A stretch of DNA of 46,499 bases from assembly GCA_945870145.1 (NCBI GenBank), contig CAMBQV010000003.1, forward strand, positions 1 through 46,499, read 5' to 3'. Under the pieces are notes generated by a model that was not told the origin of the DNA, ran no database searches, and worked only from the letters and a program-made list of their open reading frames with translations. The position numbers and the translations under genes are program-made. Below are positions 34,946-41,043 of the stretch, in pieces. Position 1 is the first letter of the stretch, and the number at the start of each line of letters is the position of its first letter. This DNA comes from Akkermansia muciniphila. Lineage in GTDB: Bacteria; Verrucomicrobiota; Kiritimatiellia; RFP12; UBA1067.

Positions 34946-35323
34946 ATGATGAAAAAAACAGTGAAAGCAGCAACGAAAAAGGTCGTAGCCCCTAAGGTAC
35001 CTAAGGCACCTAAGGCCGTGGTCGAGCCGAAGGTCAAAGTAGCAGGTGCGCCAAAAGCGAAGACACAGCGCGTCATCTTTAGTGTGCGTGCCAAAGAGGG
35101 GAGCAAGGTTTTTGTCGCAGGTTCTTTTAATGATTGGGATCCTACCGCAAAGCAACTGCTGGACAAGAAGAATGAAGGTCTTTTCACCGCAACCATTAAT
35201 CTGGAACCCGGTGCTTATCAGTATAAGTTTGTGATTGATGGTATCTGGTGCGCCGATCCGGAATGCACCGACTGGGTCCATAATGATCATGGAACCCTGA
35301 ACAGTGTGAAAAACGTGGAATAA
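34946..35323 (+). CDS. Glycogen-binding CBM48 (AMPK-beta-like) protein with Lys/Ala/Pro/Val-rich N-terminal tail
   Basis: VFVAGSFNDW, LEPGAYQYKFVIDGIWCADP, NDHGTLNSV; GAGG RBS. Confidence 0.9.
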   Translation: MMKKTVKAATKKVVAPKVPKAPKAVVEPKVKVAGAPKAKTQRVIFSVRAKEGSKVFVAGSFNDWDPTAKQLLDKKNEGLFTATINLEPGAYQYKFVIDGIWCADPECTDWVHNDHGTLNSVKNVE

Positions 35324-35327
35324 TAAC

Positions 35328-36341
35328 GTGCAACCCATTCGGCCTCGACTTGCGGTGACGCTTGGCGACCCTGCAGGAGTGGGGCCGGAATTGGTGTTGC
35401 GGTTGCTTGCGGATGAGCAGGTCGCCGCTCAAGGCCAACTGGTTGTCTACGGGAGCTCAATTCTCGCAGTGCGTGTCGCGGAAGCGGCGCGCATTTCTTT
35501 TTCCTCACAGCAGATACCGAATGGTCATGAATGGGTTGAAATACCCTTTTCCGAGGCCGCAACTATCCAGCCCGGACACGTTCAAGCGGCCTGCGGACGA
35601 CAAGCCTTGGCCTGCATTGAAGAGGCGACTCGGGATGTGATGGCGAAACAGGCGAACGCCCTGGTGACCGGGCCCATCAACAAGGAGTCCCTTCGCTTGG
35701 CGGGTGTCCATTTCCCAGGGCATACCGAACTGCTGGCGCATCTGACCCAGAGCTCGATTGAACCCTGCATGGCCTTTTTTGCAGGTGTGGATCGCCTCAA
35801 ATCAACCTTTCCGATGGTCAGTTTGGTCACCATCCATGAGCCGCTCGCCAAAGTTTCGTCCTTGCTGACTGTGGAACGTATTGCGTCGGTCATTGCCCGG
35901 ACTGATGAAGCTTGCCGGAAACGTGGTCTTCGGGAGCCCAGGATCGGCGTCCTTGCCTTTAATCCCCATGCCAGCGAAGGCGGACTCTTTGGCGATGAGG
36001 AGCGACTCGCGATCCAGCCTGCTATCCGTCTTGCACAGGAGAGGGGCATTCAAGCTTTCGGCCCTCTGATCCCTGATACAGCCTTTTTGGAGAAATATGA
36101 TGCGTTAGTGGCGATGTATCATGACCAGGGACTGATTCCCTTTAAAATGGCGGCCTTTGATTCGGGTGTCAATGTCACGCTCGGTCTCCCGATCATCCGA
36201 ACCTCCCCGGATCATGGTACAGCTTTTAAGATTGCCTGGCAGGGGGTTGCAAAGGTTGGAAGTTTTAAAAACGCGCTCCTGCTCGCGGCTCAACTGGCTA
36301 CGCCTAATCAGACGAGCGAAAAGCCCTGCTGTTCCAGATAA
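35328..36341 (+). CDS. pdxA: 4-hydroxythreonine-4-phosphate dehydrogenase (PdxA family)
   Basis: TLGDPAGVGPE, VTGPINK, FPGHTE, NPHASE, AMYHDQG, NVTLGLPIIRTSPDHGTAF. Confidence 0.96.
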   Translation: MQPIRPRLAVTLGDPAGVGPELVLRLLADEQVAAQGQLVVYGSSILAVRVAEAARISFSSQQIPNGHEWVEIPFSEAATIQPGHVQAACGRQALACIEEATRDVMAKQANALVTGPINKESLRLAGVHFPGHTELLAHLTQSSIEPCMAFFAGVDRLKSTFPMVSLVTIHEPLAKVSSLLTVERIASVIARTDEACRKRGLREPRIGVLAFNPHASEGGLFGDEERLAIQPAIRLAQERGIQAFGPLIPDTAFLEKYDALVAMYHDQGLIPFKMAAFDSGVNVTLGLPIIRTSPDHGTAFKIAWQGVAKVGSFKNALLLAAQLATPNQTSEKPCCSR

Positions 36342-37540
36342 CGGACGGCCTGTTCGAGAAAATCCTCAGGCGTCGAGGCTCCGCTGGTGACCCCCAGGGA
36401 GTGATAAGGACTCCAATCTGTATGCAGGAGCTCGGAAAGGTCGCTGACCAAAACAGCCTCTGAACCTGCTGCCTGAGCGGTCTCCACCAGCCGTTGACTG
36501 TTGGAACTGTTGGCCGAACCTAGGACAATAACACACGCGCAGTGGTGTGCTAAATCCTTCACCGCCCGCTGACGGTCACGAGTTGCATAACAGATGTCTG
36601 TATGGGGAGGGGAGACAAGCTGGGTGTATCGGCTCCGCAGGGCAGCCATGACTTCCGCAACCTGGGATTCGCCGAGTGTGGTCTGGGTCACTACGGCAAT
36701 GGGACGGTCTAGCGGAAGGTCGAGTCGCCCCACCTCTTCTGCGTTTTCAACGACATGGACACGCTCTGGAGCCTCCCCGACCACGCCGATGACCTCTTCG
36801 TGGTTCCGATGGCCGATGCAGACGATCGCGATTCCCGTGGAGGCAAAGCGCTTGACCTCGTCATGCACCTTGGCGACAAAGGGGCAGGTCGCATCAATGA
36901 CCGTCAGGTTGCGGGAGGCGGCCTCCTGACGGACTTTTGGCGAGACCCCATGAGCTGAAAAAAGGAGCTTGGCGCCCTCCGGGACATCCTCCACGCATTT
37001 GACAAAATGTAGTCCCATGGACGTGAGACGTGTGACAACATGCTGGTTATGAACAATCTCGTTGAGACAGAAGATCGTTTCGTTCCCGCTCTTTTGCTCG
37101 AGCGTCTTCTCCGCCATGTGAATCGCCCGCGCGACACCCGTACAAAAGCCATGGGGCTGAGCAATAAAAAGACTGTTGAAGCCCGAACCCTGATCCTCTC
37201 CTAGCTCATACCCATCAGAAGGCTCTTCGTCCTGGAAGAGCGTGGGATCATCCTGTTCGAGCGACCTCAGGATCTGCTCGGCAGGAATCGCCGTTTTCTT
37301 TTGCGTGTTGCACGTTTGACATGCCGGCACGATATTGCCTTTTGTACTGGTACCACCACGCGCGACCGGCACGATGTGATCCATGGTGATGTCTTCGGAC
37401 GCGACCTTCTTCTTGCAGTAATGACAGACCCCAGCCTGCCGCTGTTGTTGCCACCAGACGCTTTTTCGTAAGGCTTTCGCCTTCTCTCGCTCCCGTTTGC
37501 TGTGATCGGGATCGCTCGGACTGTCAATCCACTCGCTCAT
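36308..37540 (-). CDS. ispH: HNH endonuclease fused to 4-hydroxy-3-methylbut-2-enyl diphosphate reductase IspH
   Basis: N-terminal CHYC..MDHIVPVARGG...GNIVPACQTCN, acidic linker, then GFC, EIVHN, FSAHGVS, DATCPFV, TQTT, DICYAT, GSANSSNS, GVTSGASTP. Confidence 0.93.
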   Translation of the reverse strand: MSEWIDSPSDPDHSKREREKAKALRKSVWWQQQRQAGVCHYCKKKVASEDITMDHIVPVARGGTSTKGNIVPACQTCNTQKKTAIPAEQILRSLEQDDPTLFQDEEPSDGYELGEDQGSGFNSLFIAQPHGFCTGVARAIHMAEKTLEQKSGNETIFCLNEIVHNQHVVTRLTSMGLHFVKCVEDVPEGAKLLFSAHGVSPKVRQEAASRNLTVIDATCPFVAKVHDEVKRFASTGIAIVCIGHRNHEEVIGVVGEAPERVHVVENAEEVGRLDLPLDRPIAVVTQTTLGESQVAEVMAALRSRYTQLVSPPHTDICYATRDRQRAVKDLAHHCACVIVLGSANSSNSQRLVETAQAAGSEAVLVSDLSELLHTDWSPYHSLGVTSGASTPEDFLEQAVRYLEQQGFSLV

Positions 37541-38390
37541 GCTTTTTAAAAAGTCCTGTCCGCCAGTTTTCAATACGAAGCGACTCCACCTCTTGCATTC
37601 CCAGCGCCTCATACGCCGCCTTAACGCCGTCATATTGTTCTACCAGAATACCCGACACAATCAGACGGGAGGAGAGGGACGCAATAATCTGCGGTGCAAA
37701 TTGGATGAGCACCGGCGCCAGAATGTTGGCGACCACGATGTCCGCAGGCGGATAGGGGTGGGAGAGGTCATCAATAGTAATGGGGATGGAGACGTTGTTG
37801 ATTTCAGCGTTTTCGTCAGAGACCTTTTTGCAGTCCGGATCATTATCAAAGCCGCGCACATCCTTGAAGCCCAATAATGCCGCGCCGATAGCCAGAATAC
37901 CTGAGCCGCAACCCATATCGAGCACCGAGCGGTTCACGTTTTCGGCGGCCAGCTGATCCAGGAATCGGAGACAGCCTTGAGTTGTCGCATGCTTGCCGGT
38001 ACCGAAGCTGAGACCGGGATCGAGCGTAATCACCACCTCGCCGGGTTTCGCCTCATATTTTTCCCAGGAGGGACGCACCACGATGCGATCAGAAATTTTT
38101 TCCACATGGAAGAAGCGCTTCCAGGCTTCGGCCCAGTCCGCGCGCGCGAGTGTGGAGAGCTCGGGCTTTAACGCCGGCAGGCCAGCCAGTTCGGCGGCTT
38201 GTTGGAGTGATTGGCAGACGCTCTCCACTTGCGAGGCATCTTCCAAAAAGACATCGAGGCGGCAGACCTTGGTCTCCACGTCAAACCACGCTGTCGGCGT
38301 AAAGACATCCGAGTCCAGCAGTTCAAATAGGGCGTCAACGTCTCCTTCCGCAATTGCGCAGGAGACAACAGTCAGAGTGTCAGGTATCAT
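37524..38390 (-). CDS. prmA: Ribosomal protein L11 methyltransferase
   Basis: DWAEAWKRFF, LDPGLSFGTGKHATT, VLDMGCGSGILAI, VANILA, SGIL. Confidence 0.95.
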   Translation of the reverse strand: MIPDTLTVVSCAIAEGDVDALFELLDSDVFTPTAWFDVETKVCRLDVFLEDASQVESVCQSLQQAAELAGLPALKPELSTLARADWAEAWKRFFHVEKISDRIVVRPSWEKYEAKPGEVVITLDPGLSFGTGKHATTQGCLRFLDQLAAENVNRSVLDMGCGSGILAIGAALLGFKDVRGFDNDPDCKKVSDENAEINNVSIPITIDDLSHPYPPADIVVANILAPVLIQFAPQIIASLSSRLIVSGILVEQYDGVKAAYEALGMQEVESLRIENWRTGLFKKHERVD

Positions 38391-38468
38391 TTGCAAAATA
38401 TCATAGCATCTGCGTGCCCGATCGGCTACAGAAAAGGGGATTCGTTTCTATCAAAGGTCTTATCGATC

Positions 38469-38563
38469 CCCCCGGCCTTGTGCCGGGGGTGAAGGAAGCT
38501 GGGTGGCGGTACGTCATCTCCTCCCTCAAACAACGTTTGCCTCCACCGACGCAAGGTCGGTGG
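38469..38563. repeat. Inverted pair of 21-bp palindromes
   Basis: CCCCCGGCCTTGTGCCGGGGG (38469-38489) and CCACCGACGCAAGGTCGGTGG (38543-38563). Confidence 0.65.
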
Positions 38564-38796
38564 GCGGCCGAGGTCAATGAATTGGAGTTGCGCCCCTGTT
38601 TTACTTGCGCCTTGAAGTTAAAAGACAAAAACAGGTATACTCTCATGCCTGATGTTAACCGTGTAAATCATGAACGACTCCGCGTTGGCGTTGGCGGGGT
38701 TAGAGGAAGATCAGCGTTCGGCGCAAGAGATTGTGATGGATATTTAAAACAGGTAGGCAATTTAGCAGTAACAGAGCAATAGAAAAAGGAGTTCAC

Positions 38797-40014
38797 ATGC
38801 AACGGAGGACATTTTTCATCAATTCAATGGCTTTGGCGGTAACGGAAACGCTCTTCGCACAAACCAACAAAGTGACGGCGGAGCTTCCGGCGAAACTTGA
38901 GGATAGGTCACGGAAGATCAAGGTCGGTTTTGTCGGCGGGGGTGGACGCGGACACTGGATTGCCGGTTTGTTCAAGGCGCACGGCGGATACGAAGCTGTC
39001 GCCGTGGCGGATTATTTCCAACCTGTGGCGGACAAGCTGGGGGACGTCTTTGGGGTGGCACGCGACAAGCGGTTTTCGGGATTGTCGGGTTATAAACGCG
39101 TCATTGAAAGCGGAATTGAAGCTCTGGTGATTGAAGATGTGCCCTACTTCTATCCTGAACAGGCCGCGGCGGCAGTGGCAGCGGGATTGCATGTGTACAT
39201 CGCCAAACCCGTGGCGGTGGATGTGCCCGGTACGCTGGCCATCGGCGAAGCGGGAAAAGCGGCGACACAGAAAGAGCGTGTCTTCTTGGTCGACTATCAG
39301 ATTCCCACCGATCCGTTTAACAGTGAGGTCGCTCAACGTATTCAGGCTGGAGGGCTGGGGCCGCTTGCGCAGGTGCAGACCTACGGAATTAGCAATGGGT
39401 TCTTTGATCCGCCGAAAACCGAGACGATCGAAAGTCGGTTGAGGGGTTTGATCTGGGTGAACGATGTGGCCTTGGGCTGCGACAATATCGGCAATTATGA
39501 TATTCATGCCATCGATGCGGCCATCTGGGTTCTTAAACAGCGGCCCATCTCTGCCGTGGGAACCTCCCGGAGCTGTCGCAAAGAGCCGCACGGAGATGGT
39601 CGCGACGTGATTTCACTGGTGTACGAATATGCCGATGGCGTGATCCATAACCATTATGGCACGGCGTTGAAAAACAACTCGGAGAGTATCTTGCGCGCCA
39701 CCTTTGCCGGACGCGATGCCAATGCGCAAATCATCTATGCGGGAAAAGCGTTTTTGCGCGGCGGGTCGCAACATTACGGCGGCGGCACCGTGGAGAACCT
39801 CTATAAGGCCGGCGCGGAACGCAATATCGCGTCGTTCTACAGGGATATCCTCAACGCGCGCTATGAAAACGAAACGGTCCCTCGGGCAGTGGACGGAACC
39901 CTCGCCTGCATCTTGGGCCGCGAGGCTGCCGCACGGGGTTGCAAACTCACGATGAAGGAGTTGCTCGCGGAAAACCGCAAACTGGATGTCGACCTCAAGG
40001 GACTTAAGGACTAA
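38797..40014 (+). CDS. Gfo/Idh/MocA oxidoreductase with probable Tat signal
   Basis: MQRRTFF twin-arginine motif, KIKVGFVGGGGRG, HVYIAKPVA, DIHAID; AGGAG RBS. Confidence 0.9.
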   Translation: MQRRTFFINSMALAVTETLFAQTNKVTAELPAKLEDRSRKIKVGFVGGGGRGHWIAGLFKAHGGYEAVAVADYFQPVADKLGDVFGVARDKRFSGLSGYKRVIESGIEALVIEDVPYFYPEQAAAAVAAGLHVYIAKPVAVDVPGTLAIGEAGKAATQKERVFLVDYQIPTDPFNSEVAQRIQAGGLGPLAQVQTYGISNGFFDPPKTETIESRLRGLIWVNDVALGCDNIGNYDIHAIDAAIWVLKQRPISAVGTSRSCRKEPHGDGRDVISLVYEYADGVIHNHYGTALKNNSESILRATFAGRDANAQIIYAGKAFLRGGSQHYGGGTVENLYKAGAERNIASFYRDILNARYENETVPRAVDGTLACILGREAAARGCKLTMKELLAENRKLDVDLKGLKD

Positions 40015-40386: not shown

Positions 40387-40650
40387 ATGGCTATATTACA
40401 GGTTCGAAGCATGGATAATATGTTGTATGATGCACTGGGCAGGCTGGCGGCATCAGAAAATCGCTCTATCAGCCAGCAAGTCATTGAGATTATTAAGACT
40501 TATTTAGGCACGCCACGCCAGGAGCTTATCAGCAGGGACGATGCGGCGTTGTCGTTAGCTGGAGCGTGGAAAGATGAGCGGTCTGAGAAGGAAATTGTGA
40601 AGGAGATTCGCAAGAGTCGCGCAACAAAAAGATTTCAGGAGGTGTTATAA
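40387..40650 (+). CDS. FitA/VapB-like ribbon-helix-helix antitoxin
   Basis: MAILQVR....LYDAL..LA..ENRSISQQVI, LAGAWKD; abuts a PIN toxin gene. Confidence 0.88.
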   Translation: MAILQVRSMDNMLYDALGRLAASENRSISQQVIEIIKTYLGTPRQELISRDDAALSLAGAWKDERSEKEIVKEIRKSRATKRFQEVL

Positions 40651-41043
40651 ATGTACTTGCTTGATACGGATACGTTGATTTATTTTCTCAAGGGTAATGC
40701 TTCCGTGCTTGCGCATTTTAAAGCGAGCAGGAATATGCCCAAGGCTTTTTCCGTTGTGACGTATGGGGAGTTGATCTATGGCTGTCGTAAATCACAGCGC
40801 ATGAACGAAAATTTGGCAAAAGTGAGACATTTGGCAGAGATCTATCCCGTCATCGATGTAACGCGTCCAATCATGGAGTGTTTTGGTGAATTAAAGGCCA
40901 TTCTCAGTTCAGCGGGAACAGTGGTTGATGATTTTGATTTGCTGATTGGCTGTACGGCGCTGACTATGAATTATTCCATGGTGACCAACAACATTAAACA
41001 TTACCAGAAAATTCCAGGACTCAAGGTGGTGAATTGGGCGTGA
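40651..41043 (+). CDS. vapC: VapC PIN-domain toxin
   Basis: YLLDTD, GELIYG, DFDLLIG, VTNNIKHY..IPGL..NW. Confidence 0.95.
   Translation: MYLLDTDTLIYFLKGNASVLAHFKASRNMPKAFSVVTYGELIYGCRKSQRMNENLAKVRHLAEIYPVIDVTRPIMECFGELKAILSSAGTVVDDFDLLIGCTALTMNYSMVTNNIKHYQKIPGLKVVNWA

Follow-up and report, generated by a model that had tools for sequence, protein, structure and literature searches.

In-frame fusion of a Gmet_0936-type HNH nuclease to IspH in a lake-water Kiritimatiellia bacterium, probably from overlapping neighbouring genes

Here we describe a gene in which a lake-water Kiritimatiellia bacterium encodes a nuclease and an isoprenoid-pathway enzyme as a single protein. It lies in a 46,499-nt window (the whole stretch of DNA analysed: contig CAMBQV010000003.1 of assembly GCA_945870145.1, positions 1 to 46,499) and reads, at 36308-37540 on the minus strand, as 410 residues closed by a stop codon and not interrupted by any other. 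The product consists of an HNH nuclease module, an acidic linker and a complete IspH (LytB). We confirmed that the fused open reading frame (ORF) is genuine, conserved and a single uninterrupted frame, and we consider it probable that the fusion is a join of two translationally coupled neighbours, giving one bifunctional polypeptide whose halves act independently.

The ORF listing holds an open frame of 36308..37633 on the minus strand, or 441 amino acids (aa) counted from its first ATG. Every fused and free homologue begins with MSEWID or MSDWID at the ATG at 37540, which is therefore the credible start of the protein. The neighbours of the fused gene are prmA and pdxA (Table 1). An earlier note, made from the letters of the sequence, had described a 410-aa HNH-linker-IspH frame without a stop at the junction, a start overlapping prmA, two CxxC pairs with a DH/N/N set in the HNH part, and three Fe-S cysteines in IspH. 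Translation, Pfam and NCBIfam agree with this gene model, the overlap with prmA amounts to 17 nt, and all of the named residues were located.

Neither the contigs of other sequencing runs nor the relatives show a stop or frameshift in the ORF. A 6,024-nt contig of DNA run X1 covers 36300-37700 with 25 substitutions and one indel, an extra base behind 37542 and hence outside the ORF. Contigs of DNA run X2 and a contig of RNA library X23 (37107-37697) also cross the linker, both without indels inside the ORF, and the third DNA run, X3, gave two short stretches of the IspH part only. This support takes the form of assembled contigs, and the DNA run that matches best could itself be the sample from which the window came. 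Little of the window is represented in runs X4-X22 and X24. Four further genomes of the genus keep the full-length frame (65-91% identity), one of these genomes being a single contig of 6.1 Mb; from a sixth, only a contig-end fragment is available. A search for the HNH and LytB architecture (PF01844 and PF02401) in a collection of 5.8 billion proteins gave 35 full-length fused clusters at 90% identity, originating from JGI, ENA, NCBI and Logan assemblies. Within a library of 1.84 billion representatives, every fused form belongs to the same 50% cluster, P0019, which alone among the best 150 representatives matches both halves. Where the fused proteins are named at all in public records they carry the IspH name only, so that the nuclease half goes unnoticed.

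By its sequence, the N-terminal half is an HNH endonuclease of the Gmet_0936 type in all but being free-standing, and it is predicted to nick DNA in a metal-dependent manner. The module combines basic N-terminal helices, a beta-beta-alpha-metal core and a zinc ribbon. It is matched by the Pfam families HNH (PF01844; aa 39-82, E 1.5e-13, 51.1 bits against a cut-off of 21.4) and HNH_5 (PF14279; aa 39-88, 50.4 bits against 27.5). Its motif is made up of C39, C42, C74 and C77 in two CxxC pairs, D54-H55, N69 and N78, and these eight residues are invariant in an alignment of fused and free sequences (19/19). The closest solved structure is that of Gmet_0936 from Geobacter metallireducens (PDB 4H9D), which matches aa 13-97 with residues 12-98 of its 112-aa chain at E 1.9e-28; the next-best solved matches are Cas9/IscB-like HNH domains at E of about 1e-5. 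The equivalent residues in Gmet_0936 are C38, C41, C73, C76, D53, H54, N68 and N77.

According to the consulted part of the paper on Gmet_0936 (Xu et al. 2013, PMC3765158), on which our statements about this protein rest throughout, the four cysteines bind a structural zinc ion and D53, H54, N68 and N77 form the active site. The protein is a dimer with weak, Mn-dependent nicking activity that prefers acid- or heat-damaged (abasic-site) DNA; it ends in the disordered acidic tail EPSDGEG, and its biological role is given as not known. The fusion HNH shares with it the four zinc cysteines, the D-H/N/N set, the basic N-terminal helices and a disordered acidic tail of the same kind, and the model of a fused homologue (P0018) matches the Gmet_0936 structure in Foldseek at a template modelling (TM) score of 0.69-0.73. 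The two differ, as Gmet_0936 and the relatives given in that paper are free-standing proteins of 92-133 aa, whereas here the tail continues into IspH; the consulted part of the paper mentions no link to an isoprenoid gene. The free-standing relatives in other genera measure 103-112 aa.

The HNH orthologue appears, from its distribution and sequence, to behave as a conserved chromosomal gene rather than a mobile one. Of the order's 41 genomes 37 carry it, with about 50-70% identity, and at least 595 confirmed stretches were found in species-representative genomes, which the submitters label mostly as Kiritimatiellia or Lentisphaeria/Victivallales, with some Deltaproteobacteria/Myxococcales. A mobile or homing HNH is ruled against by this occurrence within the order, by purifying selection and by housekeeping neighbours. 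A phage origin was likewise rejected: phage genes match the core only (about aa 29-95), all 417 phage records are below 60% identity, and a single one covers at least 80% of the query. The HNH proteins of defence systems (Septu PtuB, PDC-M01B, Cas9/IscB, retron) were set aside as well, as PADLOC matches reach at most 29 bits and involve only the HNH core of profiles 200-700 positions long, and NCBIfam matches to Cas9d and IscB are far below their cut-offs. A search of longer proteins for other fusion partners of this HNH gave eight matches among 104 candidates, all of them HNH plus LytB, which is weak evidence on the range of partners.

As judged from the sequence, the protein is also a full member of the IspH family. 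Pfam LYTB (PF02401) matches aa 126-402 with 290.2 bits (cut-off 24.5; E 1.8e-86), spanning positions 3-266 of the 267 in the profile, and NCBIfam TIGR00216 (ispH_lytB) scores 287 bits against a cut-off of 187.85; the narrower NCBIfam models NF002189, NF002190 and NF002188 stay below their cut-offs. The cysteines C133 (PHGFC), C219 (ATCPF) and C317 (DICYA) align with those in the PRGFC, ATCP and DICYA motifs of E. coli IspH, and the motifs VHN, SAHG, GHxxHxE, TQTT, NSSNS and GAS are present. We take the three cysteines to be the [4Fe-4S] ligands and the conserved His, Glu, Thr, Ser and Asn to be catalytic or substrate-binding positions. Structures of E. coli IspH (PDB 3KE8, 3F7T, 4H4C and others) align end to end (E 3.4e-67) with the cysteines and conserved positions in common, and IspH structures match the P0018 model at TM 0.82-0.88. 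Unlike the E. coli enzyme, the fused protein has a 122-aa N-terminal extension with the nuclease domain, joined about 10 residues before the first cluster cysteine. No chain holding both the IspH and the HNH fold was found by Foldseek with the P0018 model.

Both halves are shown to be under purifying selection, with catalytic and metal-binding residues kept. The ratio of nonsynonymous to synonymous substitution rates (dN/dS; Nei-Gojobori, within the genus, three pairs with unsaturated dS) is 0.03-0.08 in the HNH part, 0.10-0.14 in IspH and 0.26-0.63 in the linker. No ispH other than the fused gene turned up in the fusion-bearing genomes searched: genome G000 (79% complete) has one LytB match, and G000 and the single-contig relative G001 have one match each to the whole query. 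IspG is present in 5/5 fusion-bearing genomes tested. Because of the low dN/dS, the sole LytB match and the presence of IspG, we regard the IspH half as almost certainly the working enzyme of the organism and the HNH half as probably retained for its own sake. In AlphaFold2 (AF2) models both domains are confident, with a mean predicted local distance difference test score (pLDDT) of 87.9 for the window protein and 89.9 for a short-linker homologue. The linker, whose sequence as quoted in the earlier note lies at aa 96-118, falls below a pLDDT of 50 at aa 103-119 and is predicted to be disordered.

The likely origin of the fusion can be read from its relatives. We inspected the junction at 16 loci of the family (f1), assigning unfused ispH starts from reading frames. 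The two genes share one frame without a stop at six of these junctions, namely the five of the window's genus (L001-L005) and one of genus g20 (L007). The other 10 junctions have two distinct genes, read in different frames, with the stop of the HNH gene overlapping or abutting the start of ispH: by a 4-nt ATGA/GTGA overlap in seven cases, and in one case each by TAATG (1 nt), 8 nt and 14 nt. It is because the HNH stop in sister genera overlaps the ispH start that we favour a join of coupled neighbours, and of the explanations offered by the earlier note it is a fusion of neighbouring genes that these separate but overlapping genes bear out. The tails of the free HNH proteins are acidic and Gly-rich (GEGDS, DDMADDEGDET, GGEE), and the DNA encoding them carries GGAGG-like sequences, spaced from the start of ispH as a ribosome-binding site would be. 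In the ancestral state, as the relatives suggest, the HNH gene would have stood directly upstream of ispH with its stop codon overlapping the start. Both frames would then have been merged by a small indel, or by a deletion, within the 3' tail of the HNH gene, and the disordered acidic tail, once bearing the ribosome-binding site of ispH, would have become a linker. Since free HNH tails are acidic, Gly-rich and end at the ispH start, the window linker is most simply explained as the former HNH tail, extended after an indel brought the frames into register.

Three observations weaken the suggestion of the earlier note that the acidic linker could be an autoinhibitor, taken as one specific to the fusion: free relatives already have an acidic, Gly-rich tail, Gmet_0936 has its own disordered one, and an entire fused clade carries a short linker that is neutral to basic.

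The distribution of the pair is narrow. Among 25 genomes of the family, classified by hand, the genes are fused in six, adjacent in 10, on different contigs in seven and undetermined in two. Linkage is absent from all 16 genomes that represent the order's other families; 13 have both genes on different contigs and three have one gene only.

How often the join occurred was approached with a 134-row tree of the IspH domain. In it 33 fused sequences form one clade (support 96 in the Shimodaira-Hasegawa-like approximate likelihood ratio test, SH-aLRT), made up of a long-acidic-linker clade (21 rows, including the window) and a short-linker clade (12 rows). P0029-31 and P0035 take a basal, unresolved position, and P0033 and P0036/37 lie inside the unfused clade; these seven are known as protein sequences only. 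A 43-row subset was selected after viewing this first tree. Both trees omit P0001 (the same gene as L001) and the partial sequences P0023, P0032, P0038, P0039, P0052 and P0067, and the subset also omits the long-branch rows L017 and L018. In the subset, a topology uniting all 14 fused rows in one clade is not rejected by an approximately unbiased (AU) test (log-likelihood difference 18.46, p 0.183). Because linkers differ sharply between the fused lineages (Table 1), we lean towards several separate joins.

The upstream context bears on the same question. The gene prmA is the upstream neighbour in all fused loci tested (L002-L005 and L007, together with L036, L039, L041 and L043, which are the same four genus genomes fetched twice; L001 is the window locus); not one of the 104 remaining loci tested has it there. 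This fits one fusion for the long- and short-linker clades together. In 5/5 unfused operons the upstream gene encodes a GDT1 cation transporter with rubrerythrin, on the same strand and 0-43 nt away, and the GDT1-rubrerythrin/HNH/ispH arrangement may be a metal/oxidative-stress operon. At one of these loci, L014, a flavin-reductase-like gene follows ispH.

On the question of whether the two halves work together, we think it rather likely that they act independently on a flexible tether. The IspH half would perform the ordinary last step of the methylerythritol phosphate (MEP) pathway, the HNH half would continue the activity of the free protein, and the fusion would contribute obligatory 1:1 co-expression only. 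The wider distribution of the HNH gene is in keeping with this. Among the best 80 of the at least 595 HNH loci (in species-representative genomes, which overlap with the genomes of the order), ispH is absent from the flank at 58, seven of these having less than 1.4 kb of downstream DNA. In 151 genomes of the class that are at least 85% complete, counted by hand at an E threshold of 1e-10, both genes occur in 14, the HNH alone in nine, IspH alone in 39 and neither in 89. Of five HNH-bearing genomes tested, four gave no LytB match, one of these being a single contig rated 99% complete, and the fifth has a 45-residue LytB fragment only. Where the HNH gene is unlinked its neighbours vary (lipid A acyltransferase, MsrB, an RNase T-like exonuclease, RseP, MlaD). 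In genome G126 the unlinked HNH gene adjoins genes for a BsuBI/PstI-type restriction endonuclease and a C-5 cytosine methylase; a restriction-modification system stands beside it in this genome only, in one of the 14 neighbourhoods examined.

Several observations weigh against independence of the halves. First, the arrangement recurs: 17 of the best 80 HNH loci have ispH adjacent, four are fused and one has ispH 294 nt away, and the fused label changes five times on the 134-row tree and four times on the 43-row subset, with two changes forced in each by starred, well-supported branches. Second, the HNH-ispH pair stayed joined while its upstream neighbour switched from GDT1-rubrerythrin to prmA. 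Third, in the short-linker clade, a linker of 4-13 aa necessarily holds the HNH module near the IspH N-terminus. Predicted TM scores of 0.69 and 0.73 for the two AF2 models fit a fixed as well as a free arrangement of the domains. A complex prediction with IspH (aa 120-410) and HNH (aa 1-102) scored 0.00 twice, its controls not having been folded, and carries no weight either way.

[quoted passage not shown] We allow this a minor chance. In addition to the points above, it would be in line with translationally coupled HNH-ispH pairs in 10 genera of the family, with fusions of at least four unlike linker types, with the GDT1-rubrerythrin and flavin-reductase-like genes of the unfused operons, and with the Mn dependence and abasic-site preference of Gmet_0936. 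However, the linkage is confined to one family (0/16 genomes in the others of the order), ispH is missing from the flank of most of the best HNH loci, the HNH gene persists where IspH was not found while 39 of the 151 class genomes have IspH without this HNH, and neither length, charge nor sequence of the linker is conserved. The earlier note had raised gating of the nuclease by Fe-S or isoprenoid status, or its tethering to an essential enzyme; this gained no computed support, as the HNH is unlinked in most lineages and is present in the four tested genomes where LytB was not found. That HNH-IspH is a functional unit, with cluster state or HMBPP controlling DNA cutting, or with the nuclease brought to wherever IspH is produced within a metal/oxidative-stress module to which a GDT1-rubrerythrin membrane protein would also belong in unfused relatives, has in our estimate only a slim chance of being correct.

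The direction of the change could also be the reverse, with the fused gene ancestral in the family and the two-gene overlap produced by fission, to which we give a small chance. When the 43-row tree is rooted on another family, its earliest branches are three fused lineages, with a clade of the unfused sequences nested within, and the AU result for a single fused clade is compatible with this order. The basal branches concerned, however, have SH-aLRT values of 83-93 and are not starred, whereas the fused P0036/P0037 lie inside a starred (96-98) unfused clade with a junction that resembles a tail deletion. The 4-nt ATGA/GTGA overlap is moreover the usual form for coupled genes. Outgroup families have HNH and ispH on different contigs, and adjacency therefore came first.

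It is very improbable that the HNH half no longer cuts DNA in the fusion and instead serves IspH as a zinc-ribbon dimerisation module or a rubredoxin-like four-cysteine site. The four cysteines do form a CxxC...CxxC site, and Gmet_0936 is dimeric with weak nicking only; but D54, H55, N69 and N78, dispensable for a purely structural role, do not vary among either the fused or the free forms, the HNH dN/dS is the lowest of the three parts, and the crystal site holds zinc rather than iron. An assembly or sequencing artefact, by which a false frameshift joined two genes, has a negligible chance, for although a one-base homopolymer difference upstream of the ORF indicates that small indel differences exist in this assembly, the same frame stands in five other genomes, in fused clusters of several origins and in junction-crossing contigs from two DNA runs and an RNA library.

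Known IspH fusions offer the nearest comparison. IspH-RPS1 and IspH-UbiA, as treated in the main text of a survey of IspH fusions (Rao et al. 2015, PMC4746011), resemble HNH-IspH in the in-frame join to an unrelated second domain, in their recurrence in related anaerobe-type lineages and in having a partner whose role is not known. They differ in that the partner here is an HNH nuclease and N-terminal. The terms HNH, nuclease and endonuclease have no mention in that main text. Assignment to the IspH-S1 class was rejected, with a score of 236.1 bits for NF000907 against a cut-off of 624, as was an S1 or UbiA partner, Pfam finding HNH families and LYTB only. The HNH-IspH architecture was not found in the literature searched on IspH/LytB nuclease fusions and the Kiritimatiellota MEP pathway, in agreement with the earlier note, which knew of no described nuclease fusion. 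None of 12 other N-extended IspH proteins, picked by length from the best 150 representatives, has an HNH domain. Three such proteins deserve mention in their own right: P0214 (405 aa) has N-terminal pentapeptide repeats followed by LytB, P0210 (477 aa) a short DNA_topoisoIV-like stretch followed by LytB, and P0122 (447 aa) two LytB stretches. We conclude that HNH-IspH is a real, narrowly distributed and apparently undescribed IspH fusion of modest interest.

Table 1. Positions of the fused gene, its parts and other genes mentioned in the text, with linker properties of the fused lineages. Positions are those of the window unless a locus (L) is named.
Feature	Position	Strand	Basis or property
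Whole fused gene, HNH-linker-IspH	36308..37540	-	410 codons + stop; Pfam, NCBIfam, full-length homologues
HNH module, Gmet_0936 type, aa 1-97	37250..37540	-	Pfam; PDB 4H9D match; invariant columns; AF2 pLDDT 78-93
Acidic linker, aa 98-122	37175..37249	-	Net charge about -9; AF2 pLDDT, dN/dS, tails of free relatives
Complete IspH (LytB), aa 123-410	36311..37174	-	Pfam, NCBIfam, E. coli IspH alignment, Foldseek, motifs
prmA, upstream gene	37524..38396	-	Pfam PrmA E 2.9e-63; 3' end overlaps fused-gene start by 17 nt
pdxA	35328-36341	+	Convergent 3' overlap of 34 nt with fused gene
Glycogen-binding module protein	34946-35323	+	125 aa; AMPK1_CBM/CBM48, E 7.8e-17
87-aa ORF	40387-40647	+	No Pfam match
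PIN-domain gene	40651-41040	+	Pfam PIN E 4.6e-07
GDT1-rubrerythrin gene	L006:2666-3595	-	
GDT1-rubrerythrin gene	L009:2719-3489	-	
GDT1-rubrerythrin gene	L010:2720-3484	-	
GDT1-rubrerythrin gene	L012:328-1134	+	
GDT1-rubrerythrin gene	L014:282-1148	+	
Restriction endonuclease and methylase genes beside unlinked HNH, genome G126	L026:4087-6245	+	BsuBI/PstI type; C-5 cytosine methylase
Linker, long-linker clade			18-33 aa; net charge -5 to -11
Linker, short-linker clade			4-13 aa; net charge 0 to +3
Linker, P0029-31			21-22 aa; acidic
Linker, P0035			17 aa; net charge -3
Linker, P0033			23 aa; net charge +2
Linker, P0036/37			4-8 aa; net charge +3

Some further features of the window and the class were recorded. 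The T/A homopolymer before the ATG of the fused gene (37541-37550) is one base shorter than in the X1, X2 and X23 contigs and in L002, which is either a strain difference or an assembly homopolymer error and leaves the fused ORF untouched. In all relatives the TGA of prmA overlaps the ATG of the fused gene (ATGA); the window prmA enters the fused gene by 17 nt with the tail KKHERVD. A promoter and terminator scan of 36000-38900 yielded no informative signal upstream of the fused gene on the minus strand. Elsewhere in the window, a protein with a glycogen-binding module is encoded between mnmG and pdxA, and a PIN-domain gene directly follows the 87-aa ORF; by its arrangement, this pair (40387-41043, plus strand) has the layout of a VapBC-type toxin-antitoxin system. 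No IspH match at E 1e-10 was obtained in 89 of the 151 class genomes, and PF02401 was not found in 4/5 genomes checked by protein family, among them a closed genome of 2.9 Mb. Sizeable parts of the class may make isoprenoid precursors by another route.

In summary, if the fusion is a mere by-product of operon structure, as we judge most likely, its wider importance is small. IspH is a drug-target enzyme, and its natural fusions to RPS1 and UbiA have served as clues to functional connections not otherwise apparent. Were HNH-IspH a functional unit after all, it would give the Gmet_0936 family its first physiological context. HNH proteins of this type are widespread and have a solved structure but lack a known role, and the lineage in which they are coupled or fused to ispH is a natural testing ground for them. 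The locus itself provides a worked example of how genes overlapping at ATGA become one, with a tail and a ribosome-binding site turning into a linker.

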